A DNA stretch of 64,000 nt, from NCBI GenBank assembly GCA_034408725.1, contig JAWXCN010000200.1:2871-66870 (forward strand). The letters are read 5' to 3'. A program made the position numbers and the translations under genes. Positions 5,014 through 45,405 of the stretch are shown here, piece after piece; positions within the stretch are counted from its first letter, which is position 1; each line of letters begins with the position of its first letter. The DNA comes from Candidatus Hydrogenedentota bacterium. GTDB taxonomy: Bacteria > Hydrogenedentota > Hydrogenedentia > Hydrogenedentales > SLHB01. The notes under the pieces were generated by a model that saw only the letters and a list, made by a program, of their open reading frames with translations, searched no databases and had not been told where the DNA came from.

Positions 5014-5045
5014 CGTTGCGGTGTATTTTCGTGGTGAATGACAAT

Positions 5046-5072
5046 GCCCGGCGCTGGGCCGGGCGTTTTTTT
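5046..5072 (+). terminator. Rho-independent terminator
   Basis: Stem GCCCGGC, loop GCTGG, stem GCCGGGC, then G plus seven T. Lies 33 nt after the DUF1080 stop. Confidence 0.6.
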
Positions 5073-5085
5073 CACAAAGTCAGCC

Positions 5086-6585
5086 TCACAGTATTTCTCC
5101 CTGTAAATACCAGCGCCGCCGTTTTTGATCGTGGTATATCCAGAGCCATCGGCCGCTACGCGTGCGCACATAGAAATACGTTCGCGCGATTTCGCGCATC
5201 CACCATCCGCCGGATACAATCTGGGGTCCGATGACTTCTTCGACCGGCCCTTCTGAAATCCCGGCTATCAGCCAACCGTCGGGTTCGTGCCGATCGCGGG
5301 GGGGCAGCGCAATTGGGGGCGCAAAAATCCGCCGAACCATTGGCCGCACCGCCACGCGCCTCGGATGCGGCAAGGCCAGCCGTTGAAGCGGTTCCCAGCC
5401 ATAGCGGGCTTCGGGCAAATGTCCTTCATGAAGATGCGCGCACACCACTGTGCCGTTTCCCAGTTCCGCGCGGATGCGCGCAAATGCGCGCAGCGCAGCC
5501 TCCGCATTCCGCAGCGCGGCATCGGGAAACAATCCAAGCTGTTGTTCATTTGCCGTGATGCCCGTCGCGCACATCCGAAACTCGATCACCGGCGCGGACA
5601 ACGACAATGCGCCCACGCGCAACCGCAGCAACTGGAGGAGCTGGTTTGCGTCCAGCGTCGGTGTTGCGGGAGTTATTTCCTCGCACAGTTCGCTGCCATC
5701 GCCCAGCCGCAACGTGATCCGCAGCGACGCGAGCGTTTCGTGGCGCGCAGCCAGTTCCATGAACAGTCCTTGCAAGCGTTCGGCAAACAGCGCCAGTAAT
5801 CGATCCAGATTGTCTTCCGGATAGTCCAGTTGCTCGCGCCGTTCGAGGGGTTCAAACAGCCGCTCGGCGTTCAAGGCGTCCCAGCCCTCGCCCCGCGCGA
5901 GTTCATGCAGGGCCGCCGCGCCGGCGCCAAACCTCGCGCGAATGCCTTCGGCGGGAAGGGCGATAAACGCGCCCAGTGTTTTCACGCCAAGTTTGAGCAA
6001 GGTATCGCGCAGGCGCGGATCGATCAGAACCCGCTCGATGGGAACTTGCCGCAGATGCGCGCGTTCCTGTTCGGACGATTGAAATACAAAGCCGTGCATG
6101 CTCGAATGCGCCGCCGCATAACTTCCGAACCGCGAAAACCCGACCGCGACCACCGCGCGGAAACCGGCATCGCGCAAATCATCGCGTATGAGCGCTGCCC
6201 ATGCTTCGAGCGAGGGATAGACCGCGCGCAACCCTGATGCGTCCAGCCAAAACACCCCGTGTTCGTGTTTGGCAGGTTCGATCCGCGGACTAAAGCACCA
6301 CAGCCGTTGTGTCATCGCGCGCACCGCCTCGGTGATCTCCGTCTCCGCTACTACGCCGCCGCGCAACTCGCGCGACAACGATAACCCCGCCGCGTAGCGC
6401 ATGCCCGGAAAAATACGGCTCGCATAGGCGAGTTCATTCGCCCACTGGATCAGGCCCAGCGGGGTGTCGCGGTCCACCACCACCACGGGCCGCACCGTCC
6501 AATCGGGATGCGCGCGCAACAGCAGTTGCAACGGCAGCCCCTGGATATCAACACAGGCCGTCCGGTCCACGGTACATCTCCCCAT
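5086..6585 (-). CDS. imuB: ImuB, Y-family polymerase-like mutasome subunit
   Basis: 499 aa. N-terminal ACVDIQGLPLQLLLRAHPDW is typical of ImuB. Lies directly downstream of, and overlapping, an ImuA-like gene. Confidence 0.8.
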   Translation of the reverse strand: MGRCTVDRTACVDIQGLPLQLLLRAHPDWTVRPVVVVDRDTPLGLIQWANELAYASRIFPGMRYAAGLSLSRELRGGVVAETEITEAVRAMTQRLWCFSPRIEPAKHEHGVFWLDASGLRAVYPSLEAWAALIRDDLRDAGFRAVVAVGFSRFGSYAAAHSSMHGFVFQSSEQERAHLRQVPIERVLIDPRLRDTLLKLGVKTLGAFIALPAEGIRARFGAGAAALHELARGEGWDALNAERLFEPLERREQLDYPEDNLDRLLALFAERLQGLFMELAARHETLASLRITLRLGDGSELCEEITPATPTLDANQLLQLLRLRVGALSLSAPVIEFRMCATGITANEQQLGLFPDAALRNAEAALRAFARIRAELGNGTVVCAHLHEGHLPEARYGWEPLQRLALPHPRRVAVRPMVRRIFAPPIALPPRDRHEPDGWLIAGISEGPVEEVIGPQIVSGGWWMREIARTYFYVRTRSGRWLWIYHDQKRRRWYLQGEIL

Positions 6586-7174
6586 GGTTCCAACCCGGGG
6601 TGCGGCGCTTGTCCTTTACGATTTGCACCGTACACGTAAAACAGTCGTGTCCCATGCGCCGCCGGTCTGTTTCTCCGCGCAACGACACCAGCGATCCGCC
6701 CGCGGTATCGCGGCGTTCCCGCCGCGTAATCATCACCAGCGCGGTTTGATGTTTTTTTGCAAGCCCCACCAGCCGCGTCTGGATGCCGAGCGGCAGCTTC
6801 ATTCTGTTTCCGACATCCAGCACCACCAGCGCAAAGGCGCCGGAGCGCAGCAGCGTGTCCGCCACGTGCCATCCCTTGCTTTCATCGGTCACACGCACTA
6901 CAGGCAGCGCGGACAGGTCAATGCCCGATGCGTCGAAGTCCGGTGGGAAAAAACCAAACCCCGGTCCACCGATCCATGTCGCCAGCCCGCCACGTTCCTG
7001 CGCCTCCACTACCAGTCCCGCGCACACCGTCACCGCAGACGATTTCGATGCCCCGCCCAGTTCCACAAAGCGGCCCAGAACTGTGTCCAGCCCCCAAGCC
7101 TTAGCGCGCAAAGGTAATTGCGATAATTCGCGCGCGGTTTGCATGGTATTGAATGCCAATGACTTAGTGTCCAT
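6548..7174 (-). CDS. imuA: ImuA, RecA/SulA-like mutasome subunit
   Basis: RecA-fold-like GRFVELGGASKSSAVTVCAGLVVEAQ and ALVVLDV, positioned before imuB. The ATG at 7174 has GGAG 7 nt upstream. The longest ORF starts at a TTG at 7195. Confidence 0.7.
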   Translation of the reverse strand: MDTKSLAFNTMQTARELSQLPLRAKAWGLDTVLGRFVELGGASKSSAVTVCAGLVVEAQERGGLATWIGGPGFGFFPPDFDASGIDLSALPVVRVTDESKGWHVADTLLRSGAFALVVLDVGNRMKLPLGIQTRLVGLAKKHQTALVMITRRERRDTAGGSLVSLRGETDRRRMGHDCFTCTVQIVKDKRRTPGWNHGEMYRGPDGLC

Positions 7175-7241
7175 TTGACTGCTCCATAAGCTCAAAAGAC
7201 GGGGCCGGAAATAGAAAAGCCGGATTTATGCACCACTCAAT

Positions 7242-7270
7242 AAAATACTGAATAAATAATCAGTTGTCAA
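7242..7270 (-). promoter_or_regulatory. Promoter TTGACA-N17-TATTTT with embedded SOS-box-like palindrome CTG-N10-CAG
   Basis: On the minus strand: TTGACA (7265-7270), 17-nt spacer, TATTTT (7242-7247). The spacer carries AACTGATTATTTATTCAGTA (7246-7265), with arms ACTGA/TCAGT. Confidence 0.45.
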
Positions 7271-7510: not shown

Positions 7511-7644
7511 TGAGCAGCCAAAGCGGTGTCTGCGCTGCCCGCTTCGCCACCGCAGTCCAAATAGTCCTCTTTCCAAACATCAAGTTTTAGGAAGAAGCCT
7601 ATTTGGACTGCGGCGGTCCCCAAGGCGCCGCTTTGGGCTGCTCA
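7511..7644. repeat. Two REP-like units in inverted orientation (imperfect 46-54 bp arms, 34-nt spacer)
   Basis: Left arm tgagcagccaaagcgg...ccgcagtccaaatag (7511-7564). Right arm ctatttggactgcgg...ccgctttgggctgctca (7599-7644). The inner 15 bp are perfectly complementary. Confidence 0.7.
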
Positions 7645-11265: not shown

Positions 11266-11343
11266 GGCGGTAGTAGCTCAGCTGGTTAGAGCACCGGATT
11301 GTGGTTCCGGGGGTCGCGGGTTCAAGTCCCGTCTACCGCCCCA
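11266..11343 (+). tRNA. tRNA-His (anticodon GUG) with encoded G-1 and CCA
   Basis: Folded by hand. 8-bp acceptor stem GGCGGTAG/CTACCGCC including G-1:C73. D arm GCTC-AGCTGGTTA-GAGC. Anticodon arm CCGGA-TTGTGGT-TCCGG. T arm GCGGG-TTCAAGT-CCCGT. 3' CCA is encoded. Confidence 0.9.
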
Positions 11344-27925: not shown

Positions 27926-28414
27926 ATGGTCGCGTTGCGAGCTTGCGTCTATGCCTCCACCTTTATTGGTTTTCTGCTAATTTACTTCCCATACGCCATC
28001 GGACAAACCGATCGCGGTTCTCTGGCGCTGGGTCCGCTCCGTTACGTGGCCATTCCACTCTTTGTCATCGGCGCAATTGTAGCGTTGCGATGCGTGTACG
28101 ATTTCATACGCATCGGACGTGGAACGCCGGCGCCCTTTGACCCGCCGCGCGCGTTGGTCGCGCAAGGCTGGTACCGCTGGGTCAGAAACCCGATGTATAT
28201 CGGTGGGCTGATGTTGCTGCTGGGTCACGTGGTCTGGTGGTCGTCGATTGGCACGGCTGTTTACACGGCGTTGTATTGCGTGGCCACGGCGTCGTTTGTG
28301 GTGTTCTATGAAGAACCGACGTTGAAGCGCAAATTCGGCGCTCCATACGAACGTTACATGCGGGAAGTCCCGCGATGGATTCCGCGCAGACCGCGCGACG
28401 GGGCTGTGCAATAG
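27926..28414 (+). CDS. Isoprenylcysteine carboxyl / phospholipid methyltransferase family membrane protein
   Basis: Multi-TM protein with GWYRWVRNPMYIGGLMLLLG, typical of the ICMT/PEMT family. Confidence 0.7.
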   Translation: MVALRACVYASTFIGFLLIYFPYAIGQTDRGSLALGPLRYVAIPLFVIGAIVALRCVYDFIRIGRGTPAPFDPPRALVAQGWYRWVRNPMYIGGLMLLLGHVVWWSSIGTAVYTALYCVATASFVVFYEEPTLKRKFGAPYERYMREVPRWIPRRPRDGAVQ

Positions 28415-28814
28415 AACTAACCATTAACTGCTGATGCAGCGCGTTAGGCTTATCCGGTCGTTTTACAGGGCAGGAGACCAGAATCGTATAGTCGTTATCT
28501 GGTCCACTCAGGGGGACAACAGGCTACGCGCAACCTGTTGCGTGCCGCACTTCGTCGACGCTTAGTGACTTCATGCCATGTACCGCCATGATCCAGCCGT
28601 TGAGTGCGTGTAATGTCTTCGCTGGGATGAGCATTTTGGCCCATCCTTTCCAGCATAGTCATTCATATCTTTTGAAAAAAGTGCCTCGATGCGCCTGGGT
28701 TCTGGTGCCTCATCGAGCGGTGTAAAAGTTACGTTGAAGCCGTGGAGTTTAGGGTTTATGATCGCGGCCACGATGCGAAGGGATCGCCGATGAGCTACAT
28801 CAAAAAGCCTAATT

Positions 28815-29114
28815 GTGAAACGAGACGATTGGAGAGTGACCGTGTATAACCTTCGGTCAATCGTAGGTGGAGTGATGTTGCTCGCTATAGCAGGCTGCGT
28901 AACCAATCAACCGTCCACAACTCTAGACTTGTCAATGTATACCACCGAGCAATTGCTGATTGAACGCGAGAGGTTAGTGGATCCTGGATTGGTGGCCATT
29001 CTCGAAATTGAAATAAGAAAGCGCCCGAATGCAGAGTTGTTTGTTATTGAACCAAAGGATTCGGGCGCAGAAGCGAACCGGCGGCAGGTGACGGCATGGA
29101 GCTTAAAATTATGA
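28815..29114 (+). CDS. Hypothetical small lipoprotein (low-GC islet)
   Basis: Lipobox VMLLAIAGC. No recognisable family. Start uncertain (alternative GTG codons). Confidence 0.4.
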   Translation: MKRDDWRVTVYNLRSIVGGVMLLAIAGCVTNQPSTTLDLSMYTTEQLLIERERLVDPGLVAILEIEIRKRPNAELFVIEPKDSGAEANRRQVTAWSLKL

Positions 29115-29320
29115 TCAAAATGTCGCGTCTGGAAATACTGGATTGTCTTTTTGCGGCATACGCTATGTTTTATTTTATTTTTGAAGTGTCTCGAGTTGTT
29201 CTCGGCTTTGCCATCTCAATGTTGAGTGTACTATTGGTCATGCCGCTGGTGCTATACATTGTCATTCGCTATCAAGGATTAATAATTGCCTCTATCCATG
29301 CTTCTAAGTGGTTTCGTTAA
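29096..29320 (+). CDS. Hypothetical 2-TM small membrane protein (low-GC islet)
   Basis: 74 aa with two hydrophobic helices. Overlaps the previous ORF by 19 nt. Confidence 0.35.
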   Translation: MELKIMIKMSRLEILDCLFAAYAMFYFIFEVSRVVLGFAISMLSVLLVMPLVLYIVIRYQGLIIASIHASKWFR

Positions 29321-29517
29321 ATGCCTTTGCCGATTCGATTATGGTGAACGTGCGCCGTGCCTGGTCCCATACTTAACCAGCACGACGTAACGATGCTGGC
29401 GCACCCGAACCCCGACATTGTGCGACTTTGGGTTTATTGAACGGGTCAGCGAGGCCGCGCCAGTGGCCGGCAATGACGTTTTTTGGGTGTTTGACCAGAA
29501 CGAAACGCTTGTCATGC

Positions 29518-29838
29518 ATGGAGCACTATGATCACGGAGCGTGCAGATTGAGTACGTTCGCCGAACATTTAAGAATGTTCATAATCTTTGGATGCGGCGG
29601 CTTGACCGCATTGGCTTTCGCACATTTTCACTGGCGAGCGCTCAACCAATCCACACCGCGAGAACCAAGGTATTTTGGAATTCCAATGTTCGTGGACGAG
29701 ATTGCGATTAAACCGGGCTGGCGCTGGTTGGCTATTTTTAGTTGTGTAGTTGGATATGCTCTAGCCGCTCTTTTTCTCGGATGCTTGGTATTGTATACAT
29801 TGGGGCTGATATTGTTGGCTGTGTTGCCGGAGGGATAG
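29518..29838 (+). CDS. Hypothetical membrane protein (low-GC islet)
   Basis: The internal ATG (MEHYDHG...) gives about 106 aa with three predicted TM helices. No family recognised. Confidence 0.4.
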   Translation: MEHYDHGACRLSTFAEHLRMFIIFGCGGLTALAFAHFHWRALNQSTPREPRYFGIPMFVDEIAIKPGWRWLAIFSCVVGYALAALFLGCLVLYTLGLILLAVLPEG

Positions 29839-30047
29839 TCGCTTGCGATTTCCGCAGCGCCCCACACCCCCAGCCTTTCAAGCCAAAGGAAGTGCGCGAT
29901 CTCTAAGAATAAGCTACGGGGCGCAACGCTGACACGGCGTGGTATGCATCGAGATTGCCAATGCTTTACCAAGGGCCATCACGTCCTCGCTTAGCTCACG
30001 ACAACCGGCGCGATGGTATATGCTGCCGGTTGTGGTAAAAGTTTTGT

Positions 30048-30212
30048 ATGAATAAGATTAAACTATCAGGCTTTGTGCTCGCCCTATTATTTGGCGCGTT
30101 TATGGTTGTATACGGCGGAATTGACGATAGCCCCGGCGGACAGTTGTTGGGACTACTGGCAGTCATTGCCGGAATTGTAGGGGTAATAAGGGGGATGAAG
30201 AAGAGATCGTAG
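30048..30212 (+). CDS. Hypothetical 54-aa 2-TM membrane peptide (below the ORF-track length cutoff)
   Basis: Translated by hand: MNKIKLSGFVLALLFGAFMVVYGGIDDSPGGQLLGLLAVIAGIVGVIRGMKKRS. Two hydrophobic helices and a basic tail. Confidence 0.3.
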   Translation: MNKIKLSGFVLALLFGAFMVVYGGIDDSPGGQLLGLLAVIAGIVGVIRGMKKRS

Positions 30213-30227
30213 TTGAGAGGCTCTATA

Positions 30228-31073
30228 TCATCCATCCTTGCCCGCATTTTCTTGCGAAGGCATAGAATCAAGTAGCATTTCCACGTCGGCCGGCGCGTAG
30301 CCGGAGTAGTGGCTATTGACGAATCCAAACACTGGTACGTGGACTTTTGATATTTCAGTAATAACCCGTGCCCATTCCTCGATATCGCTGCGTCGATCAA
30401 CAACGGTCTCGCCCCATGATTTCGTGATGCGTTCTATCGCGTAGCGGTCACCCAAAAGCCGAATATATGCAAACGGGCCAGTAAGTATGTCCGCGAACCG
30501 CATCAGTTCCTTGGGCCGGTACATGTACGGGTGGTCAATCAGCGCAAGCGTGACATTACTTTCCTTCAAGAGCCGGAAAAGGGGAGGCCCCAGCCACGTT
30601 TTGTTGCGCACTTCCACCGCGAATTGAAAACCAGATGCCGGAAGGCAGGCGAGAAACGGACCAAGCCTGTCCATGAACATTTGCGCGGAAACGTTTTTGG
30701 CCTTGGCAAAATAGGGGAACTGAAAGAGGATGGGTCCGAGGTGGTCGCCCAGATGCTGCATCGCCGCGAGAAACTCGTTGATGTCCTTTTCGCAGTCAAT
30801 AAGAAACTTCGCATGGGTAATAGTTTGCGGGGCCTTGGCGGCAAACAGGAAACCTTCCGATGCGCGATCGCGCCAGCCCTGTATCGTTTCGATCCGGGGG
30901 ATGCCGTAGAAGGTCGAGTCGATCTCGACGGCGTTAAACCGTTTGGCGTATTCGCGTATGAATTCAGTGGGTTCTTTCGTGGTGTAGACCTTGCCGATCC
31001 ACTCGCGATAGCTCCAACTGCATGTGCCCAGGCGAATCGGGGCCACCACCTTAGAATCCATCATAAACATCAC
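30228..31073 (-). CDS. DUF72 (YecE-like) family protein
   Basis: GTCSWSYREW, FNAVEIDSTFYGIP and FAVEVRNKTW are typical DUF72 blocks. Confidence 0.8.
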   Translation of the reverse strand: MMFMMDSKVVAPIRLGTCSWSYREWIGKVYTTKEPTEFIREYAKRFNAVEIDSTFYGIPRIETIQGWRDRASEGFLFAAKAPQTITHAKFLIDCEKDINEFLAAMQHLGDHLGPILFQFPYFAKAKNVSAQMFMDRLGPFLACLPASGFQFAVEVRNKTWLGPPLFRLLKESNVTLALIDHPYMYRPKELMRFADILTGPFAYIRLLGDRYAIERITKSWGETVVDRRSDIEEWARVITEISKVHVPVFGFVNSHYSGYAPADVEMLLDSMPSQENAGKDG

Positions 31074-31267
31074 CTAATTACGCAATTAAGATCCGGCTGT
31101 TCCACGCGCTGCATTGTTCGATACAATCGCGTTTGCCTTCAACGAGTCACTTAATTCGTCACCAACCACAACGGTTTCTATCGGGTTACAGCGGAGAAAA
31201 ACCCTCAATCCTTCCAATCCCGCCAACCAACGATCTGCACAAAACCGCTGATATTATTGGCTAAAAG

Positions 31268-31339
31268 TGCCCCGAGCCAGAATCGAACTGGCGTCTAATC
31301 CTTAGGAGGGACTTGTTCTATCCACTGAACTATCGGGGC
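31268..31339 (-). tRNA. tRNA-Arg (anticodon CCU)
   Basis: Folded by hand from the reverse complement. Acceptor stem GCCCCGA/TCGGGGC. D arm GTTC-AGTGGATA-GAAC. Anticodon arm AGTCC-CTCCTAA-GGATT. T arm GCCAG-TTCGATT-CTGGC. Discriminator A. CCA is not encoded. Confidence 0.85.
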
Positions 31340-31508
31340 AAGGAAATACGATGAGGACTTTGTGCCCATGCCATTGGCGCGGATAGAAAGATTATGTGAA
31401 TTCGTTGATTTGTTCAACCTGGCTGGCGCGTGGCGATATTGGCGGTTCTCGCGCGCGACGCGTTACACTGTTTCTTCTCCAAGCGTAAATGAATTGCGAG
31501 GGTAGACC

Positions 31509-32825
31509 ATGCTTAACAAATCAACCAGCCGCCGCCAATTTTTGAAGCGGACGGCGGTCACCGCGCCGCTGATCCTGTCTGCAAAAACATGGGCTTCGCC
31601 TCCGAGCGAGCGCCTCACAATTGGAGTCGTCGGCATTGGCAAGATGGGCGGCAACCACTGCGACTACCTTCAGGGGCGGGATGATGTGCAGATTGTGGCG
31701 TTGTGCGATGTCGAATCGAGGCGATTCGAGGTTGGCCGATATCTCATCGACGAGGCTTATGCATCACGTATCGGCAAAGGCAAATATGCATCGGTCGAGA
31801 AATACGGAGATTTCCGCGCAATTGCCGAGCGCAATGACATCGATGCAGTGCTCATCGCCGTGCCTGACCATTGGCACTTGCTTGTCTCTCTCGCGATGGT
31901 GCGCTCGGGCAAGGATGTTTACTGCGAGAAGCCCCTCACGCTTACGATTGGAGAAGGCCGGATTCTGGTGAATGAAGTCCGTAAGCGGGCGCGCGTGTTT
32001 CAAACGGGTAGCCAACAGCGATCCGAGGGTGGATTCCGGATCGCGTGCGAGTTGGTGCGCAATGGAAAGATCGGAGAAGTAAAAGAGATACACGTCAGCG
32101 TGGGTGGTCCGTCGGAGGAATGTTATCTTCCGCCCATGCCTGCGCCGGAAGGGTTGGATTGGGATTTCTGGCTTGGTCCCGCGCCCTATCGTCCGTATAA
32201 CAGCGAGTTCGCACCTTCGTTACAGCCGGGGCCAATTGGATCTTGGGAGGATTTTAACCGGCTGATCGGTGGCTATCCCAATTTTCGTGGCTACAAGGAT
32301 TACTCCGGCGGCGGCATGACGGACTGGGGCGCGCACCATTTTGATATCGCGCAATGGGGCCTGGGAATGGACGAATCGGGCCCGGTCGAAATTGCGCCGC
32401 CCAACGGCAGCGACGTGCCGCATCTGACGTACCGGTACGCCAATGGTGTCATCATGCAACGCCGCGACGCGGGTAAAGCAGGGGTACTGTTCATCGGGAC
32501 CGAGGGCAAGATCATGGTCAATCGCGGGTATCTCGACGCGGAACCCGCCGGCCTTCTCCGCGAACAACTTCGCCCGGGCGATATTCGCCTTCATAATAGC
32601 CGCGGCCATCACGAAGACTGGTTTGACGCCATACGCACGCGCAGCAAACCGATCTGCGACGTCGAAATCGGACATCGATCCTGCACCGTATGCCACGTAG
32701 GCAATATCGCCTCCTGGCTCAACCGGCCCGTGAAATGGGACCCGCAAAGCGAATGTTTCATCAATGACGACGAAGCCAACCGGTTGATCAACCGTCCCAT
32801 GCGCGCGCCGTGGACGCTGGCGTAG
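31509..32825 (+). CDS. Gfo/Idh/MocA family oxidoreductase with TAT signal
   Basis: Twin-arginine signal SRRQFLKRTAV. Rossmann GVVGIGKMGGNH. Motif EKPLTLTIGEG. Confidence 0.85.
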   Translation: MLNKSTSRRQFLKRTAVTAPLILSAKTWASPPSERLTIGVVGIGKMGGNHCDYLQGRDDVQIVALCDVESRRFEVGRYLIDEAYASRIGKGKYASVEKYGDFRAIAERNDIDAVLIAVPDHWHLLVSLAMVRSGKDVYCEKPLTLTIGEGRILVNEVRKRARVFQTGSQQRSEGGFRIACELVRNGKIGEVKEIHVSVGGPSEECYLPPMPAPEGLDWDFWLGPAPYRPYNSEFAPSLQPGPIGSWEDFNRLIGGYPNFRGYKDYSGGGMTDWGAHHFDIAQWGLGMDESGPVEIAPPNGSDVPHLTYRYANGVIMQRRDAGKAGVLFIGTEGKIMVNRGYLDAEPAGLLREQLRPGDIRLHNSRGHHEDWFDAIRTRSKPICDVEIGHRSCTVCHVGNIASWLNRPVKWDPQSECFINDDEANRLINRPMRAPWTLA

Positions 32826-32854
32826 AGACACAATTCCCAGCCCTGCCCCTCGCG

Positions 32855-33036
32855 CTAGTGTCCTGAGTTTGAGATTCGTTCGATATGAAGTTTGGAAATC
32901 AGACCGTACATCCCCCTAAATCCCTCTTCAAAGGGGGACTTTGAAGATCAGATTATGAAATGCGCTTCAAAGGGGGACTTTGAAGATCCGATTATGCGTG
33001 TGGCTTTTGCCAAGGAATTGCGATTCATTACACTAG
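32855..33036. mobile_element. MITE-like repeat, copy 1 (182 bp, carries a 39-bp internal tandem duplication)
   Basis: The first ~100 bp are near-identical (1 mismatch) to 37216-37315. Termini CTAGTGT...ACACTAG are inverted. Duplication units lie at 32926-32964 and 32965-33003. Confidence 0.6.
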
Positions 33037-33061
33037 TTGCGCGCTGTGCATTGCGCCTTGG

Positions 33062-36000
33062 ATGTTAGACATGAAATCGACTTACATACCGCTTTGGTGC
33101 AAGAGCGCGTATTCGTTCCTGGAAGGTGCGAGTCATCCCGATGAGTTGATCGAGGAGGCGCACCGATTCGGGATTCGCTCGATTGCGTTGACGGATCGGG
33201 ACGGCGTGTACGGCCTTGTGCGGGCGCACAAGCGCGCGCTTGAGCTTGGGGTGCATCTGATTGCGGGATCGGAGATCACGCTCTTCGACGATTCTTCGCT
33301 GGTGTTGCTTGCGGCGGACCGGGGGGGGTACGCGAACCTTTGCCGGCTGATCTCTAAGGGGCGATTGCGTTCACCGAAGGGGATGAGCCAGGTCAGTGTT
33401 GAAGAAGTCTGCGAACATGCGCAGGGGCTGGTCGCGGTGTGGGGCGGGGAACGCTGCGCGTTGGCCCGCGAAGCGGATCCTGCGTTCATGGCGGGGGCGT
33501 TACGCGATGCGTTTGGCGAACGAATGTATGCGCTGCTTACGCGGCACCGTCAGACCGGCGACGCGCGGATGGAACAGCGCGTGCGCGAGCGCGCGCAACG
33601 TCACGGGATCGATCTCGTGGCGGGAATGGAAGTGCTGTACCACACGCCGGCGCGGCGATCGTTGCAGGACGTACTGACGTGCATTCGCCATGGTGTAACG
33701 CTTTCCACCGCCGGTCGGATGATCCGGCCGAATGCGGAACATGCGCTGCGTCCTCCCCACGGTTTTGGAATGCTGTACGAAGATGATCCAGGTGCGGTAA
33801 TGCGCACGGAGGAAGTGGCGGAGCGCTGCACGTTTTCGCTCGCGGAAATCCGGTATCGGTATCCGATGGAACGGTTGCCGGACGGGAGGACCTGCGGGGA
33901 ATGGTTTCGCACGCTGACGATGGACGGCGCGCGCGAACGGTATGCGGGTGATATCCCGGAGGACGTGCGAAGACAGATCGACAAAGAACTCGCGCTGATT
34001 CACGACCTCGAGTACGAGGGCTATTTTCTGACGATGCACGAGATCGTACGGTATTGCCGGCATCACGATATTTTGTGTCAGGGACGGGGATCGGCGGCGA
34101 ATTCGGTGGTGTGCTATTGCCTTGGGATCACCGCGGTGGATCCAGTGCGAATGGGGTTGTTGTTCGAGCGGTTTTTGTCGCGCGAGCGCGCGGAACCGCC
34201 GGACATTGATCTTGATATTGAACACGACCGGCGCGAAGAGGTCATCCAACATGTTTATACAAAATATGGGCGCACGCACGCGGCAATGGTCGCGAATTTT
34301 ATCCGGTATCGCGCGCGGTCGGCGGTGCGCGACGTTGCGAAGGTGTTGGGCATTCCTGAGACCGCCATTGAACGGATTGCGCGGGTGCTGTCGCACCACG
34401 AATTTCCTTCGGCGGACATGCTTGCGGATTCCGGTGTTCCCGCTGACAGCCCTGCATTGCAGAACCTGCTTCGGTTGATGCGGGAGATAGAAGACATTCC
34501 GCGGCATTTATCCATCCATCCGGGAGGATTTTTGCTCGGACATGAACCGGTTCACGATCTCGTGCCGATTGAGAATGCGACGATGCCGGACCGCACGGTG
34601 ATTCAGTGGGACAAGGAAGACGTGGAAGAGCTGGGATTGTTCAAGGTGGACCTTCTCGGGCTCGGCGCGTTGAACGTGGTTCATCGTTCGTTTGATTTGA
34701 TTGAGAAGCATTGCGAGAAGCCGTTCACGCTTGCGACGGTGCCCGCGGAAGATCCCGCGACATACGAAATGATTCGGGAAGGCGATACGGTCGGTGTGTT
34801 TCAAATTGAGAGCCGGGCGCAGATGGCGATGCTGCCGCGATTGAGACCGGCGAATTATTATGATCTCGTGATCGAGGTCAGCATCGTGCGGCCTGGGCCG
34901 ATCACCGGCGGGATGGTTCATCCGTATCTGCGACGGCGAAATGGTGAAGAGGAGGTTACGTATCCGCATCCCTGCCTCGAACCCATCCTGAAAAAAACGC
35001 TGGGGATTCCGTTGTTTCAGGAGCAGGTGATGCAGCTTGCGATTGTCGCGGCGGATTACACACCAGGCGAGGCAGATCAGCTTCGGCGGGACATGGCGGC
35101 GTGGCGCAAATCGGGGCGGATCGAGCGGCATCGCGAACGGCTGATTGCGCGCATGGCGAAGAAAGGCATTCAAAAAGAATTCGCTGAACGCGTGTTCGAA
35201 CAGATTCGCGGGTTTGGCGAATATGGATTTCCGGAGAGTCATGCGGCGAGTTTTGCGTTGATCGCGTACGCGACGGCTTGGTTGAAGCGGCATTATCCCG
35301 CGGCGTTTTTATGCGGCCTTCTGAACGCGCAACCGATGGGGTTCTATAGCGCGGCCACGCTGGTGGAAGACAGCAAACGCCACGGCGTCGGTATTCGCGC
35401 GGTGGACATGCAGCGTAGCGCGTGGGATTGCACGCTAGAAGCGGATGCGGGCAGCGGCGAAGGTTTCGCCGTTCGGATGGGATTGCGGTATGTGAAAGGC
35501 TTGCACGAGGCCTGCGCGCAACGCATCGCCGCCGCGCGGGAGGCGGGGGCGTTTCAGTCGTTGGACGATCTTGCGGCGCGGGCACGGATCGAAACGGCCG
35601 TGATGGTGCGGTTGGCGGAGAGTGGCGCGCTGGAATCGTTTCAAGAGGAACGGCGCGGCGCGTTGTGGGAAGCCTTGGGTATTGCGCATGGTCCGCGCGG
35701 CGGTTTGAGCCTCGATCGCCCCGAGGCCGCGGCGGAATTTTCCGCGCTGCCCGCGCTGGACACCATCGAATGGGATTACGCGTTCACGTCGCATAGCCCG
35801 CGTGGTCATCCACTCGCGCCATTGCGCGAAGAACTATCGAGGCGCAAGTTGCCGGATGCGGCGGCGGTGCGGGGCATGCCCAACGGCTCGCGTGTGCGGT
35901 ACGCGGGTTTGGTGACCTGCCGGCAACGGCCGGGGACCGCGAAAGGCGTCGTGTTCATGACACTCGAGGACGAGACCGGGTTTGTAAATATCGTCGTTTG

Positions 36001-36169
36001 GGAGAAGGTGTACCGGCAGTTCGAGTTAATTGCGAAGACCGCGTCATTCCTCGGTGTTACGGGCAAACTGCAGGCACAATCCGGCGTGACGCACCTTGTC
36101 GCGGAGAAACTGTGGAAGCCCGAACTGGACAATGCGCCGTGCGAAACCCGGAGCCGGGATTTTCACTGA
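33062..36169 (+). CDS. dnaE2: Error-prone DNA polymerase III alpha-like DnaE2
   Basis: 1035 aa. N-terminal PHP domain (YIPLWCKSAYSFLEGASHPDELI), pol III alpha core (GRGSAANSVVCYCLGIT, IDLDIEHDRREEV, FKVDLLGLGAL) and an OB fold. The size and absence of a tau-binding tail fit DnaE2. Confidence 0.9.
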   Translation: MLDMKSTYIPLWCKSAYSFLEGASHPDELIEEAHRFGIRSIALTDRDGVYGLVRAHKRALELGVHLIAGSEITLFDDSSLVLLAADRGGYANLCRLISKGRLRSPKGMSQVSVEEVCEHAQGLVAVWGGERCALAREADPAFMAGALRDAFGERMYALLTRHRQTGDARMEQRVRERAQRHGIDLVAGMEVLYHTPARRSLQDVLTCIRHGVTLSTAGRMIRPNAEHALRPPHGFGMLYEDDPGAVMRTEEVAERCTFSLAEIRYRYPMERLPDGRTCGEWFRTLTMDGARERYAGDIPEDVRRQIDKELALIHDLEYEGYFLTMHEIVRYCRHHDILCQGRGSAANSVVCYCLGITAVDPVRMGLLFERFLSRERAEPPDIDLDIEHDRREEVIQHVYTKYGRTHAAMVANFIRYRARSAVRDVAKVLGIPETAIERIARVLSHHEFPSADMLADSGVPADSPALQNLLRLMREIEDIPRHLSIHPGGFLLGHEPVHDLVPIENATMPDRTVIQWDKEDVEELGLFKVDLLGLGALNVVHRSFDLIEKHCEKPFTLATVPAEDPATYEMIREGDTVGVFQIESRAQMAMLPRLRPANYYDLVIEVSIVRPGPITGGMVHPYLRRRNGEEEVTYPHPCLEPILKKTLGIPLFQEQVMQLAIVAADYTPGEADQLRRDMAAWRKSGRIERHRERLIARMAKKGIQKEFAERVFEQIRGFGEYGFPESHAASFALIAYATAWLKRHYPAAFLCGLLNAQPMGFYSAATLVEDSKRHGVGIRAVDMQRSAWDCTLEADAGSGEGFAVRMGLRYVKGLHEACAQRIAAAREAGAFQSLDDLAARARIETAVMVRLAESGALESFQEERRGALWEALGIAHGPRGGLSLDRPEAAAEFSALPALDTIEWDYAFTSHSPRGHPLAPLREELSRRKLPDAAAVRGMPNGSRVRYAGLVTCRQRPGTAKGVVFMTLEDETGFVNIVVWEKVYRQFELIAKTASFLGVTGKLQAQSGVTHLVAEKLWKPELDNAPCETRSRDFH

Positions 36170-36879
36170 GCGTTCGGGGTCTCGAGCCGGACCGGATCGC
36201 TTTTCCACACCACATACGAGTATACGATGGTGATGAGCGTTGCCGCGAGCAGGGACACGAGCATCGCGCCGATTGCAAGGGGTCCATTCGCAATCAAGGC
36301 GAGCAGAATAGTTAGCAGGCCTACGGCGAAAAACAGTTTGCCCGCAAGCCGGTGGGTCTTGTTCCAGGACAATTCGCTGGACAAGGTCCAGGGCGTGCGC
36401 ACGCCCATGAAAAAGTTGCTGCGGACCTTGCCCAGAAAATTTCCCAGCAGCAGAAACAAGAGGCCCACGCTCGTTGCTACGATCCGGTCCATCGGCAGCG
36501 GATACCCAAGGCTTACCAACACCGCCGAAGTATGGATGACTGCCATGACGAACAGAATACTCGCCGACACGGCCACCAAAAACTTTTGGGATTGTTCGAC
36601 GTGATGTCGCCGTGGGTCGATGCGGACGAGTAGCGCGATACCTGGGACAATCGCGGCGAGCAGGAGCGGCAAGAAGAAAAGGCCGAATGACTTCGAGCTG
36701 TAGTCATCGACTTCACCCCGTGCGTTCCAATGTGTTGGAATTTGGGCGTCAACCGGCAGTACCGACCATGCATACACCGAAATGAGCAACATCGGGACCA
36801 AAAAAACAGCCGTCATCAAGAGTATGGGCCTCAGACTAAGTCTGGGTGGTGCTGTCATTGCCGTTCTCCTTCGCATCAA
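36163..36879 (-). CDS. SdpI/YhfL-family (DUF1648 + SdpI) membrane protein
   Basis: IPTHWNARGEVDDYSSK (DUF1648-type) followed by multiple TM helices. Lies downstream of an SdpR-like ArsR regulator. Start uncertain (36879, 36858 or 36816). Confidence 0.7.
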   Translation of the reverse strand: MMRRRTAMTAPPRLSLRPILLMTAVFLVPMLLISVYAWSVLPVDAQIPTHWNARGEVDDYSSKSFGLFFLPLLLAAIVPGIALLVRIDPRRHHVEQSQKFLVAVSASILFVMAVIHTSAVLVSLGYPLPMDRIVATSVGLLFLLLGNFLGKVRSNFFMGVRTPWTLSSELSWNKTHRLAGKLFFAVGLLTILLALIANGPLAIGAMLVSLLAATLITIVYSYVVWKSDPVRLETPNAQ

Positions 36880-37132
36880 ACCCCATTGCGTTCATTAAGC
36901 CCAGAAGCGCCTCTTCCAGGACAGACACATTTAAACTGTAGGTTATCGACGTGCCGTTTTTATCGCCGTGAATCAGGTCTGCCTCGCGCAACACCGCGAA
37001 ATGTCGCGACAGGGTTGGCTTTGCCAGTTGGAAATGCTCGGCGATTTCGCCTGCGGTCATGTTGCGGGCGCGGAGCAGGTGCAGAATTTTTCTGCGACCC
37101 GGGTCTGCGAGGGCTTTGAAAACGAGATTCAT
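36836..37132 (-). CDS. ArsR/SdpR-family transcriptional regulator
   Basis: FKALADPGRRKILHLLRARNMTAGEIAEHFQLAKPTLSRHFAVLREADLI is a winged-HTH ArsR signature. Confidence 0.8.
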   Translation of the reverse strand: MNLVFKALADPGRRKILHLLRARNMTAGEIAEHFQLAKPTLSRHFAVLREADLIHGDKNGTSITYSLNVSVLEEALLGLMNAMGFDAKENGNDSTTQT

Positions 37133-37215
37133 GGCATTGCTTTGTTTCTTTATTTAGCTAACAAACTAATTATAATTGAAAAATTGCGGCGTGTCAAGAC
37201 GTTTATGGACGATGG

Positions 37216-37358
37216 CTAGTGTCCTGAGTTTGAGATTCGTTCGATATGAAGTTTGGAAATCAGACCGTACATCCCCCTAAATCCCCCTTCAAAGGGGGAC
37301 TTTGAAGATCCGATTATGTGGGTGATTTTTGCCGGGGAATTGCAATTCATGACATTAG
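37216..37358. mobile_element. MITE-like repeat, copy 2 (143 bp, no internal duplication)
   Basis: Direct-orientation copy of 32855-33036. Termini are CTAGTGT...ACATTAG. Confidence 0.6.
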
Positions 37359-37442
37359 TACGTCACGGGAAATGACTATGGACGGTGGCCCCGGCGAGAC
37401 GCCAAGAGAAGCGCCGCCAGCGAGGAGTGCTCCGGGCGTTGT

Positions 37443-37516
37443 CCAAAATCCGCGCGGAGCGCCCTGGAGTGCGGCAGCGGGTAGCTGCCGCTTTCCATTT
37501 CCTGGGCAAAGTCGCT
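37443..37516. repeat. REP-like element, 74-bp form (inverted partner at 38840-38913)
   Basis: ccaaaatccgcgcggagcgccctggagtgcggcagcgggtagctgccgctttccatttcctgggcaaagtcgct. Internal hairpin GCGGCAGC-GGGTA-GCTGCCGC. Two mismatches to the reverse complement of 38840-38913. Confidence 0.8.
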
Positions 37517-37595
37517 TCGCAATTAAAAGCGATCACCCCGGCTTCGATTCAAGTGAGCCTGAAGCCTACGAATTTATTTGGGCATTCGGCTATCC

Positions 37596-37633
37596 GAAGT
37601 GAAAGCGGCGATGACACGCCGCAGTCCAAGGCG
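37596..37633. repeat. REP-like element, 38-bp form
   Basis: gaagtgaaagcggcgatgacacgccgcagtccaaggcg. 34/38 identical to 45368-45405. Hairpin GCGGCG-N6-CGCCGC. Confidence 0.75.
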
Positions 37634-37660
37634 CTGTGCGCGAGTTAGGGCAGTTTGGGA

Positions 37661-38761
37661 TTATGCCCGGCGGCGGCGGATAACGGTGATGGCGATAGCC
37701 GCGACGGCGCCAGCGGCGGCGGCTACACCTGCGAGGGCGAATCCTCTGCTTCCGGGGATGCTGGTGGCAGCGGAACCGGACGCCACTGCACTGGATGGTT
37801 TCTGGCCGTGTGTACCGGCAGGTAACGAACCAACCAACATTGCATCTGCGCGGGCGAGTTCGGCCTGGCGTTCGGCGGTGTCGCGCGCGCGCAGCTCGCG
37901 GACACGGCTGCGGCTTTTGCGATCCGGATCGGCCTGCCGGTTTTTCTTCAGGGACGAAAGCGAAAAGTCTGTGGGGATGGCGGTGTCGGCAAGTTCAGAA
38001 TCAAAGCCACCGGTTTTCTCGATGGAACGCGCGAAACGCTGCACCAGATCGCCGTGCAATAGCATCAGTTCCTGGTGTTTCTCCATGTATTTTTTTAAGG
38101 CTTTCATGCGCGCCTGGGGCGTGTCATGTCCTTCGAGTACATTGGCGAGTGTGCTGGCGACCGCATTGGCCTCGTAGGCCGCGATACTTGCCTGCTGTGA
38201 CTCGGACAGGGGCGCGCCGGAGGGTACGTAGTTCAGGACTTGATCAAAGTGCTGCTGCGCCGCAATCGGGTCGCCTTGTTGTTCCGCAAGTTTTCCGAGC
38301 GCGTAGCGGCTTTGCACTACCATGGCGTCTTCGCCCGGGTAGTCGACGATGATGCTCTCATACATTCCGCGCGCGGCGCCGGGATCGAGTTCCGATGCGC
38401 GGTCGGCGGCATGATGCCGCACGGTCATCATATACGGATGTTCCGGGTCATAGGTTTCGATAATGCGCTGATACGTTTCGTACGCGGCCTGAAGATTGGG
38501 GGGTTCGCCCCGGTCGACAAAATCCGACTCGTAGAGCATCGCGATCTGTGTGTCCAACTGAATATTGTTTGGAAAACCGGGATGCGCATCGATCAGCGCG
38601 CGGTACCGGTCGATCAATACATCGCGTCCATACTCGCGAGCGAGGTCAGCGCCGTCGCGCTGCAACGCCTCGATTTGCGCGGCATACGCCTCATAGGGAG
38701 TTTCCTGCGCGGACACGCAGGCGCACGCAAAGACTGCGGCAATGATGATCGATGGTTTCAT
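37661..38761 (-). CDS. Secreted helical-repeat (TPR-like) protein with C-terminal hydrophobic anchor and basic tail
   Basis: The internal ATG at 38761 gives the signal MKPSIIIAAVFACACVSAQE. The upstream part of the longest ORF is REP DNA. The C-terminus is PGSRGFALAGVAAAAGAVAAIAITVIRRRRA. Confidence 0.5.
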   Translation of the reverse strand: MKPSIIIAAVFACACVSAQETPYEAYAAQIEALQRDGADLAREYGRDVLIDRYRALIDAHPGFPNNIQLDTQIAMLYESDFVDRGEPPNLQAAYETYQRIIETYDPEHPYMMTVRHHAADRASELDPGAARGMYESIIVDYPGEDAMVVQSRYALGKLAEQQGDPIAAQQHFDQVLNYVPSGAPLSESQQASIAAYEANAVASTLANVLEGHDTPQARMKALKKYMEKHQELMLLHGDLVQRFARSIEKTGGFDSELADTAIPTDFSLSSLKKNRQADPDRKSRSRVRELRARDTAERQAELARADAMLVGSLPAGTHGQKPSSAVASGSAATSIPGSRGFALAGVAAAAGAVAAIAITVIRRRRA

Positions 38762-38839
38762 AGTCCCTATTCTACCATTGACCGCCCCCGGCATTTCGCG
38801 GCGACCGTGACACGCCAGGCTCAACGTGCTCAATTGCCA

Positions 38840-38913
38840 AGCGACTTTACCCAGGAAATGGAAAGCGGCAGCTACCCGCTGCCGCACTCCAAGGCGCTCC
38901 GCGCGGATTTTGG
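38840..38913. repeat. REP-like element, 74-bp form (inverted partner of 37443-37516)
   Basis: agcgactttacccaggaaatggaaagcggcagctacccgctgccgcactccaaggcgctccgcgcggattttgg. Confidence 0.8.
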
Positions 38914-39003
38914 GCGCCACCTGGGATTTAGGCGCGTTGCCCTGGATGACACGCCGTGTCCATCTGCTCTAAAATTACGTGGATGCAAAGGGAGACAGCA
39001 CTT

Positions 39004-39636
39004 ATGAATGAAGAGATCGAGAACGCTGTCCGGAAACTGGGCGACACCAAGGCGGGATGGGTGACACGCCGGGACTCGGCGGAATACCTGGGGAAACTGG
39101 CGACCAAGGCCCTGGGCGCGCTGCACAGTTTTGGCGAGGAGATGGACGTCGACGTGCGCCGGGCGGTGGATGAATGGTTGGGGCGGTCGGCGGCGATAGT
39201 GAAAGACGTGAAGCCCGTCGCCGGAGCGCAGAAATACACGCTGGAAGAGCTTGTGAAGTCCGTTGCGAAAGACGGCTCGCGGGACGTTGAACGCGAAGGC
39301 GAAGATTTTATTGTGCAAGTTACATTGAAGGATGGGCGAACCCAATCGGTACACGTGCGCGAGTTCAAGCGGGAAGACGGGATGAAACTGGTCCAGGTCT
39401 ATTGTGTGTGCGGCAAGGCGGATGAAAGCGCGTATGCCTGGGCGTTGCGCGCGAACATGAAATTAATTCAGGGGGCCGTCGCGTTATCAAAACAGGGCGA
39501 CGATGAACGTTTTGTGTTGTCCACGTGTTTCCTGGCAACTGAAATTACGAAGATGGAGATCAAGGCCGCGATCAAGGAAACGGCATATTACGGGGATTGG
39601 ATTGAGCAGAAACTGTCGAAACACGACGAGTTCTGA
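39004..39636 (+). CDS. Hypothetical protein (HEAT-like N-terminus, YbjN/chaperone-like C-terminus?)
   Basis: Coding-looking 210-aa ORF from the ATG at 39004. Domain guesses are from weak resemblance only. Confidence 0.45.
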   Translation: MNEEIENAVRKLGDTKAGWVTRRDSAEYLGKLATKALGALHSFGEEMDVDVRRAVDEWLGRSAAIVKDVKPVAGAQKYTLEELVKSVAKDGSRDVEREGEDFIVQVTLKDGRTQSVHVREFKREDGMKLVQVYCVCGKADESAYAWALRANMKLIQGAVALSKQGDDERFVLSTCFLATEITKMEIKAAIKETAYYGDWIEQKLSKHDEF

Positions 39637-39644
39637 GGGTGAAT

Positions 39645-40154
39645 ATGACACGCGACGAAGCCCTGCATATCATTCAATCCGGGAAAGCGCCGGGCGTGGA
39701 CCTGCGCGGCCTGGACCTTTCCGGTTGCGATCTCGCCGGCGCGGACCTGCATGAAGCGAGGCTGTCGCAGGCGAACCTATCGGGAACGGATTTAAGCGGC
39801 GCAGACTTGCGCAACACGCTGCTGGACGAGACAAACCTTCAACGCGCGAATTTGACGAACAGCAACTGCGAGTTCGCGGTGTTTGGCGGGGCGGACGTAT
39901 CGGGCGCGAATTTTACGGGTGCGAATCTTCAGCGCGCGAATCTTGTTGGAACGAAAGGTCACGGCGCCCGATTCGACAACGCGAAGATGTTTCTTGCCCG
40001 CCCGGGGAATGCAGACCTGCGCGACGCGTCGTTTCGCGATGCGGACATCACACGGGCGATATTCCGTCGCGCGAATCTTGCCGGCGCGGATTTGCGCGGC
40101 GCGACGGGGCAGGCGAATTTTGAGAACGCGAACCTCGACGGAGCGCGGCAATGA
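39645..40154 (+). CDS. Pentapeptide repeat protein
   Basis: Continuous A(D/N)LXX repeats (ANLSGTDLSGADLRNTLLDETNLQRANLTNSNC...). GAGGG lies 5 nt upstream of the ATG at 39645. Confidence 0.85.
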   Translation: MTRDEALHIIQSGKAPGVDLRGLDLSGCDLAGADLHEARLSQANLSGTDLSGADLRNTLLDETNLQRANLTNSNCEFAVFGGADVSGANFTGANLQRANLVGTKGHGARFDNAKMFLARPGNADLRDASFRDADITRAIFRRANLAGADLRGATGQANFENANLDGARQ

Positions 40155-40711
40155 TCGTGAAACATTTCCTTCTGGACCTTATCGAGGTAAATGCGCACGT
40201 CGCCGCGTGCATGGAAACGCGGGAAGCGATGCTGATCGATGCAGGTACGTTCGATGACAGAATCGCCGCGTACCTGAGCGAGCACGGCTTGACGTTGAAG
40301 ACGGTGTTCATCACCCACGACCACTACGACCACGTGGACGGGCTTGCGGAATATGTGCGCCGTTACAAGCCTGAAGTCCTCGCGGGAACCGCGAAGATCG
40401 GCGGATGCGCCTCGCGCGTGGTAAAGGAAGGTGATACCGTGCGGGTCGGGAAGCACATTGGGCGCGTGCTCTCGACGCCGGGGCATACTCCCGTGGCCCT
40501 TTGTCTTGCGTTTCCCGGCCACGTGTTTACCGGCGACGCCTTGTTTGCGGGGTCGGTGGGCGGTACATCGACGCAGGAAAACTATGACCGCCAGATCGCG
40601 GAAGTGCGGACCCATATCCTCTCACTGCCACCGGAAACGGTAGTCCACTGCGGACACGGCCCGGCATCCACTATCGCGGTCGAAAGCCGGTATAACCCGT
40701 TTTTTGTGTAA
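40151..40711 (+). CDS. MBL-fold metallo-hydrolase (glyoxalase II-like)
   Basis: ITHDHYDHVDG metal-binding motif and TPGHTP. Start overlaps the pentapeptide-gene stop (ATGA). Confidence 0.8.
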   Translation: MIVKHFLLDLIEVNAHVAACMETREAMLIDAGTFDDRIAAYLSEHGLTLKTVFITHDHYDHVDGLAEYVRRYKPEVLAGTAKIGGCASRVVKEGDTVRVGKHIGRVLSTPGHTPVALCLAFPGHVFTGDALFAGSVGGTSTQENYDRQIAEVRTHILSLPPETVVHCGHGPASTIAVESRYNPFFV

Positions 40712-40849
40712 AGGTCGTCTCCCCCGCTTCAACCCCTCTGTTCAGGTTGCGCGTTGTTGTATCTGTATGCTAGACTTCCGGTTCTGTCTACGGGCGTGAT
40801 CTGCCCATTTTTGGGAGAAATGCGCCAGTGACAGTCACCGGATTGAGGA

Positions 40850-45367: not shown

Positions 45368-45405
45368 GAAGTGAAAGCGGCGCTTACACGCCGCACTCCA
45401 AGGCG
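45368..45405. repeat. REP-like element, 38-bp form
   Basis: gaagtgaaagcggcgcttacacgccgcactccaaggcg. 34/38 identical to 37596-37633. Confidence 0.75.

Follow-up and report, generated by a model that had tools for sequence, protein, structure and literature searches.

Within a 64-kb window of a Candidatus Hydrogenedentota contig (JAWXCN010000200.1; the window is the whole stretch of DNA analysed), two copies of a MITE (miniature inverted-repeat transposable element), here called W1 and W2, bracket the error-prone DNA polymerase gene dnaE2 and the gene pair sdpI-sdpR. With moderate confidence, we propose that this arrangement arose through a local hop of the element or through gene conversion between neighbouring copies, that the positions of the copies were fixed by the scarcity of the target sequence CTAG, and that the bracket is a by-product. 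The initial annotation had regarded the bracketed block as a possible unit, moved or deletable through its repeats. Direct support for this, in the form of a junction, an empty site or a second context, did not come to light. Its alternative proposal, that the element lies in the 5' regions of both gene sets, in opposite orientation relative to each promoter, describes the locus better: the 3' end of W1 faces dnaE2 and the 5' end of W2 lies 19 nt upstream of the sdpR promoter.

Both copies are found on the plus strand and at the coordinates first assigned to them, 32855-33036 and 37216-37358. Including its two TA duplications, W1 spans 32856-33035, from a CTAG at 32855 to a CTAG at 33036, with a core at 32858-33033. 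W2, likewise with its TA duplications, spans 37217-37357, from a CTAG at 37216 to a TTAG at 37358. The repeats had been described as about 100 near-identical bp followed by a more diverged tail, and this is borne out by 104 nt at 98% identity and a 73-nt tail at 88% identity. W1 is longer than W2 because of an internal tandem duplication of a 39-nt hairpin module (2 x 39 nt, plus strand, 32926-33003; units 32926-32964 and 32965-33003), and the number of these modules differs among members of the MITE family. The 5' end of W1 is intact. In W2, 9/40 positions of the terminal 40 nt deviate from the family consensus, and the terminal GACAC has become GACAT. Searching the 64 kb with an nhmmer profile built from nine copies revealed no third copy or remnant, and 100 shuffles of the window returned zero matches to 36-nt or 23-nt probes from the element. 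The 4.2 kb between the copies hold exactly dnaE2, sdpI and sdpR, as the initial annotation had it.

The earlier label "MITE-like" was right and can now be made more specific: the element is an IS630-derived MITE with TA duplication at CTAG. Public metagenome contigs were scanned with the exact 23-nt 5' end. The scan returned 17 loci, each matching the window solely inside the element, and these collapse to 11 further insertion sites (L083-L098). From the aligned copies we derived a consensus of ~143 nt, C-TA-GTGTCCTGAG...TCATGACAC-TA-G, which consists of a core of ~139 bp plus TA on each side. The ends C-TA-GTGTCC...GACAC-TA-G are consistent over 13 sites (W1, W2 and the 11 others). An ordinary copy measures 141-143 nt, W1 with its internal duplication 180 nt, and there is no open reading frame (ORF) inside. 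The terminal inverted repeats (TIRs), GTGTCCTGAGTTTGAGATTC and GTGTCATGAATCCCAAATCC (the reverse complement of the other end), are imperfect; a manual alignment matches them at ~15/23 positions, with the terminal 7-8 nt perfect in the consensus. Of the 12 copies for which both ends were read, 10 carry TA on either side (L092 and L095 have TG at the 3' end), and the outer flanks are C...G in most copies, restoring CTAG. IS630 itself targets CTAG.

The kinship with IS630 is indicated by the 23-nt end, which the element has in common with IS630-family transposase elements. In a contig from another metagenome (L099), an ORF encoding a transposase of 370 aa overlaps, at its 3' end, with the identical 23 nt; the transposase scores 257 bits against NF033545 (IS630 family) and contains Pfam DDE_3 plus HTH domains. 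In an Acidiferrales metagenome-assembled genome (MAG; L183), it stands beside a truncated relative of the L099 transposase. L183 is the sole 23-mer match in representative genomes, and a 31-mer from the element has 0 matches there. As k-mers of the element are nearly absent from the representative genomes, its source lineage is one without a close genome in that set. No Rfam family matches the element, its RNA fold is no better than that of shuffled sequence (z ~ -1.3), and no terminator is predicted in it. Recent activity of the family is suggested by two copies (L087 and L088) that show no difference from the consensus. In k-mer depth, the hairpin module (ATCCCCCTAAATCCCCCTTCAAAGGGGGACTTTGAAG; 32904-32951 in the window) exceeds the MITE arms, at 2-3 times their value, and it stands in tandem arrays of 2-3 units in some copies (L094/L097, L095); it may be common to other repeat families.

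Comparison with the family consensus shows that W1 and W2 are not independent draws and that they are each other's closest relatives. W1 carries 7 changes and W2 carries 11. Four of these are common to both, and 3 of the 4 common derived substitutions occur in no other copy. With 7 and 11 changes over ~142 sites, ~0.2 common changes would be expected by chance. The C at 32989, common to W1 and W2, makes up ~2-7% of the depth at that position, or roughly 1-3 copy-equivalents, so the subfamily seems to consist of these two copies alone. The divergence between W1 and W2 is uneven, with 1/102 positions differing over arm and module against 9/40 in the tail (Fisher p = 4e-5). This points to gene conversion of the 5' part, shared descent, an unexplained acceleration in the W2 tail, or a combination of these.

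All of the 11 other sites come from one microbial-mat sample series. The tetranucleotide composition of their flanks correlates with that of the window at 0.92-0.98, as compared with 0.93-0.97 for the window's own 8-kb chunks, 0.86-0.90 for other Hydrogenedentota loci and 0.66-0.78 for other phyla. Judging from this composition, the 13 sites plausibly belong to one Hydrogenedentota-like genome. Copy number was approached through k-mer depth in four sequencing runs that contain the locus at 4.5-11x. Relative to the flanks, summed depth is ~20-40-fold at the point where the module meets the tail and up to ~180-fold over the MITE 5' arm. Over the hairpin module it reaches ~400 times that of the flanks, and the module is evidently present in other repeats.

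Such abundance raises the question whether two independent insertions from a genome-wide pool simply came to lie 4.2 kb apart. At 50-150 copies in a genome of 5-6.6 Mb (a range that rests on the 6.6-Mb contig of a 78%-identical relative), chance alone should yield 1.6-18 pairs no more than 4.4 kb apart, half of them direct, and the positions of W1 and W2 are as ordinary and intergenic as those of the other 11 sites. From the 13 documented sites alone, however, only ~0.1 such pairs are expected. Chance placement also fails to account for three substitutions found only in W1 and W2, where ~0.2 common changes are expected, or for the pairing of a variant that makes up ~1-3 of ~20-40 copy-equivalents. 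We thus regard a purely accidental bracket as improbable. The initial annotation had set against its own proposal an element that is abundant, randomly placed and free of structural variants. Half of this applies: the element does occur in many copies, and structural variants did not come to light, but its placement is non-random, because W1 and W2 are the closest mutual relatives and the rare CTAG constrains insertion.

CTAG occurs at 25 sites in the 64-kb window, against 69 +/- 8 in dinucleotide-preserving shuffles, a depletion of ~3-fold, and 3 of the 25 sites are MITE ends. From 29765 to 40769, CTAG is confined to the W1 site, the W2 site and a position inside the dnaE2 coding sequence (35435-35438). 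Both intergenic CTAGs of this 11-kb stretch are therefore occupied by the MITE. With CTAG so scarce, a nearby harmless hop from either site can reach only the other, and the bracket does not need a mobile unit to explain it. The other insertions show a further aspect of this targeting. At 6 of the 11 sites, the insertion falls precisely on a TAG that serves as the stop codon of an ORF of 100 aa or more (L084, L086, L088, L089 and L092 with the 5' end, L087 with the 3' end). The stop is rebuilt by the TA duplication together with the terminal G or C of the element, and insertion on TAG is harmless for this reason.

In the scenario that we favour, one MITE copy would insert first at a CTAG. Short-range transposition, followed by repair of the donor site, would then put its daughter 4.2 kb away, where the next CTAG fit for use lies. 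In the alternative course, gene conversion would later homogenise two copies that were already neighbours. Several points weigh against this scenario. Most documented cases of local hopping concern eukaryotic Tc1/mariner relatives, and it is not known to us from bacterial IS630 MITEs; no transposase gene was found in the window or at the 11 other MITE loci. From the TA duplications, a pair of single insertions is indistinguishable from one composite insertion, and the heavy mutation of the W2 tail is left without an explanation. The exact 23-mer scan may also have overlooked W1/W2 subfamily members that lie elsewhere in the genome and have diverged. Finally, W1 lies exactly at the breakpoint that parts dnaE2 from imuB, its usual upstream neighbour, which a pure by-product model makes a coincidence.

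dnaE2 (imuC) is intact and encodes a protein of 1032 aa on the plus strand (33071-36169). The longest ORF begins at 33062; the ATG at 33071 is the likelier start, as called in the metagenome collection and as judged from relatives, which begin MKSTY or MESTY. The product matches NCBIfam NF004225 at 1354 bits (cut-off 939) and has all of the PHP, pol III alpha, finger, HhH and OB domains. On the opposite strand follows the gene of an SdpI-like membrane protein (36163-36879; DUF1648 and SdpI domains in Pfam; start at 36858 in the metagenome gene call). The 7-nt convergent overlap with dnaE2 noted before is real and lies at 36163-36169. sdpR (36836-37132, minus strand) encodes an ArsR-type autorepressor of the SdpR family (NF033789, 112 bits with a cut-off of 100). 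It overlaps sdpI, with the autorepressor followed by the membrane protein, as in the SdpR/SdpI immunity-signalling pair. sdpR-sdpI is an autoregulated pair with its own promoter and is unrelated to dnaE2.

DnaE2 has its nearest homologues, at 70-79% identity, chiefly in Candidatus Hydrogenedentota MAGs. Among the 10 closest loci from GTDB-representative genomes, imuB stands directly upstream of dnaE2 in 10/10, imuA is likewise present wherever the contig reaches, and L007 has lexA upstream. In the window, this cassette is present but split. An imuB gene that is intact through its conserved C-terminus (5086-6585) and a RecA-like imuA (6548-7195) lie on the minus strand, 26 kb from dnaE2 and opposite to it. 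Compared with the imuB that directly precedes dnaE2 in the nearest relatives, it has 58-68% identity for most of them and 48% for L011. Its 3' flank consists of 72 nt, followed by the terminator of a convergent 3-keto-disaccharide hydrolase gene, and no MITE, TA or footprint was found beside it (5014-5085). The spacer between imuB and dnaE2, normally 3-30 nt, measures 515 nt in L003 (7487-8000), with tandem units of ~21 nt, and 720 nt in L010 (7280-8000), with a small ORF and a long palindrome. The imuB-dnaE2 junction evidently tolerates insertions.

The split allows a more elaborate account, in which MITEs flanked dnaE2-sdpI-sdpR next to imuB and an IS630 transposase acting in trans moved the segment by ~26 kb, so that a single event would both divide the cassette and make the bracket. 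Sister copies in direct orientation do flank the block, W1 abuts the cassette breakpoint 34 nt before the dnaE2 ATG, and the outer flanks read C-TA...TA-G, as for an insertion at CTAG. The frequent position of the family directly after stop codons (6/11 other sites) and the long imuB-dnaE2 spacers of L003 and L010, with their tolerance of insertions, would fit this account as well, and MITE-bounded composite units are known (PMC13367494). Against it, the block has no second context in any collection searched, and the outer TIR of W2 is degraded. Near imuB, there is no MITE remnant, and its 72-nt 3' flank has no TA or footprint, leading only into the convergent terminator. Moreover, in 0/80 related loci do sdpI or sdpR occur within 8 kb of dnaE2. 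A relocation of this kind thus seems unlikely to us.

Homologous recombination between MITEs could also have separated imuA-imuB from dnaE2 by inversion or translocation, with W1 as the scar. Inverting 5086-33037 restores imuA-imuB-dnaE2 with a spacer of ~30 nt, similar to that of the relatives, and MITE-mediated rearrangements are well known (PMC10969869, PMC3184786). An inversion should, however, leave a MITE at both breakpoints, and there is none at 5014-5085. Neither does an inverted repeat connect the two breakpoints, and the GC skew has no switch at 5.1 kb or 33.0 kb. We consider this course of events very unlikely.

Evidence for the block as a unit was sought in structural variants and in other contexts. 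Two contigs that were independently assembled from another sample cross W1 (L101) and W2 (L001) and have the arrangement unchanged; L101 is 100% identical to the window, and L001 differs only by a 24-nt indel elsewhere. Neither empty-site nor copy-to-copy joints were present in contigs from the four runs, where the unitigs break at the MITE. Unitigs cannot link the flanks across the 104-nt repeat, and products of deletion or circularisation are therefore invisible there. In 0/17 scanned contigs was the upstream flank, which holds a Gfo/Idh/MocA oxidoreductase gene (GFO), joined to the downstream flank, which holds a TPR-like gene. Inside the block, k-mer depth is ~0.73-0.84 of that of the flanks (runs X1, X2 and X4; window 31500-38900). 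We treat this reduction as an effect of noise, GC content or fragmentation rather than as evidence of a subpopulation with the deletion; it could also reflect a minority deletion allele. The 104-nt, 98%-identical repeats are direct and would in principle allow RecA-dependent deletion of the block, as a potential only.

Exact-protein look-ups gave no match for DnaE2, the longest form of SdpI, the TPR-like protein, the pentapeptide protein or P0001. Those of SdpR, SdpI (231 aa), GFO and a 210-aa neighbour returned solely contigs collinear with the window. Neither these look-ups nor the 23-mer scan disclosed a second context for the unit from W1 to W2. Loci related to GFO have no synteny with the window, the best match being 58% identical and from Planctomycetes, and an empty site could therefore not be sought in relatives. 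There were also no DnaE2 homologues between 79% and 100% identity, hence no sister strains available for comparison.

The two halves of the cassette differ in their putative regulation. An SOS-box-like palindrome, CTGA-N8-TCAG, lies at 7248-7263, between the -35 and -10 of the imuA promoter, and is the single occurrence in the window. The same arrangement at the imuA promoter is seen in L003, L008, L010 and L082, and the palindrome may be a LexA box. No SOS-box-like site was detected in the MITE, nor in the regions preceding dnaE2 and GFO; in these upstream regions, the best position weight matrix score is 4.6, against 23.4 at imuA. dnaE2 may thus have lost the SOS box that imuA-imuB retain.

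In its place, the 3' end of W1 faces dnaE2 and ends 34 nt before the ATG. The W1 tail contains an outward promoter-like site on the plus strand (33007-33034, TTGCCA-16-TACACT; 9/12 consensus matches), in which a G>T change private to W1 supplies the first base of the -10, a T. GFO (31509-32825, plus strand) is co-oriented with dnaE2; 30 nt separate its end from W1, and terminator prediction gave nothing between GFO and dnaE2. Transcription of dnaE2 may come from GFO read-through, from the weak promoter-like site of the MITE tail, or from both. No RNA sequencing run was found to contain the region. On the other side of the block, sdpR has a perfect TTGACA-17-TATAAT promoter on the minus strand (37169-37197) outside the MITE, 19 nt from the edge of W2. 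The boldest interpretation would take W1-dnaE2-sdpI-sdpR-W2 as a present or recent composite transposon that took dnaE2 from its SOS-controlled imuA-imuB operon and placed it under a MITE promoter, that is, as a mobile and deregulated mutator module, deletable by recombination between its direct repeats. We hold this to be quite unlikely and keep to a local hop or gene conversion with the bracket as its by-product.

A close known parallel to the element is RUP of Streptococcus pneumoniae, a MITE derived from IS630-Spn1 (PMC2229807). Like RUP, the element is intergenic, non-coding and ~100-150 bp long, with IS630-matching TIRs and insertion at TA, and it would share the tens to ~100 copies and the presumed mobilisation in trans (PMC2229807). 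The two have no sequence relationship and belong to different phyla. Unlike RUP, the MITE of the window targets CTAG, often a TAG stop that is regenerated, and carries internally a G/C hairpin module that is tandemly duplicated to a variable extent. Its matching autonomous insertion sequence was found only in other metagenomes and phyla, not in the genome of the window.

In the Correia elements (CREE) of Neisseria, we see a second parallel, as W1 too is a TA-flanked MITE directly upstream of a gene, with a possible outward sigma-70-like promoter. A Correia element promoter has been shown to drive the DNA-repair gene uvrB (PMC10969869). Whereas promoter activity is demonstrated there, the site in W1 is a 9/12 match to the consensus, without an IHF site. 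As in integron mobilization units and TIME-COMPs, two MITEs of the same family bracket a cargo of a few kb (PMC13367494). Those units, however, occur in several contexts and with diagnostic duplications, while the block described here has one context, one degraded outer end and an uninformative TA duplication.

Split imuA-imuB/dnaE2 cassettes are already known. In Mycobacterium tuberculosis, dnaE2 (imuC) lies chromosomally apart from imuA(')-imuB (PMC3901139). The same review reports an evolutionary pressure towards LexA control of the cassette (PMC3901139). The locus departs from this pattern, since the SOS-box-like palindrome is found on imuA-imuB only and a MITE stands in its place at dnaE2.

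The surroundings hold further repeats and genes. Inverted repeats of 111 nt (37432-37542 and 38814-38924, 86% complementary) flank the TPR-like gene beside W2. They contain a GCGGCAGC...GCTGCCGC hairpin followed by TTTCC and belong to a very abundant repeat; in the mat runs, bins over them rise to 20-100 times the depth of the flanks. The 24-nt indel between the window and L001 (Ga0163152_10019264) is in frame, covers 38792-38815 and lies at the edge of the 111-nt repeat, either upstream of the TPR-like ORF or within its start. Another family of short repeats, with CCGCAGTCCAAA, occurs at 7547-7616, at 37596-37633 and 45368-45405, and in L087 at 6713-6866. A member upstream of imuA forms a near-perfect palindrome, and one copy is shared at 86% with the MITE locus L087. 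Downstream of a pentapeptide-repeat gene, a gene with a Lactamase_B fold (40151-40711) has a weak match to Anti-Pycsar Apyc1. tRNA genes are located at 31268-31339 (minus strand), 170 nt upstream of GFO, and at 11267-11340 (plus strand). The GC skew is ~0 or negative at 1-28 kb and +0.08 to +0.14 at 30-56 kb; this shift (~28000-30000) coincides with neither the MITEs nor imuB.

Taken together, the locus as it stands represents ordinary MITE biology with one neat explanatory detail. Mildly unusual are the explanation through CTAG scarcity and the split cassette without an SOS box on dnaE2, and nothing else. The element adds an IS630-type MITE family, apparently without earlier description, from an uncultured Hydrogenedentota-like mat bacterium. 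It also brings out a target logic in which CTAG is rare, insertions at TAG stops are frequent and the stop is rebuilt. If dnaE2 were indeed uncoupled from DNA damage, or if the block were lost or moved via its repeats, the mutation supply of this lineage could become variable by rearrangement.

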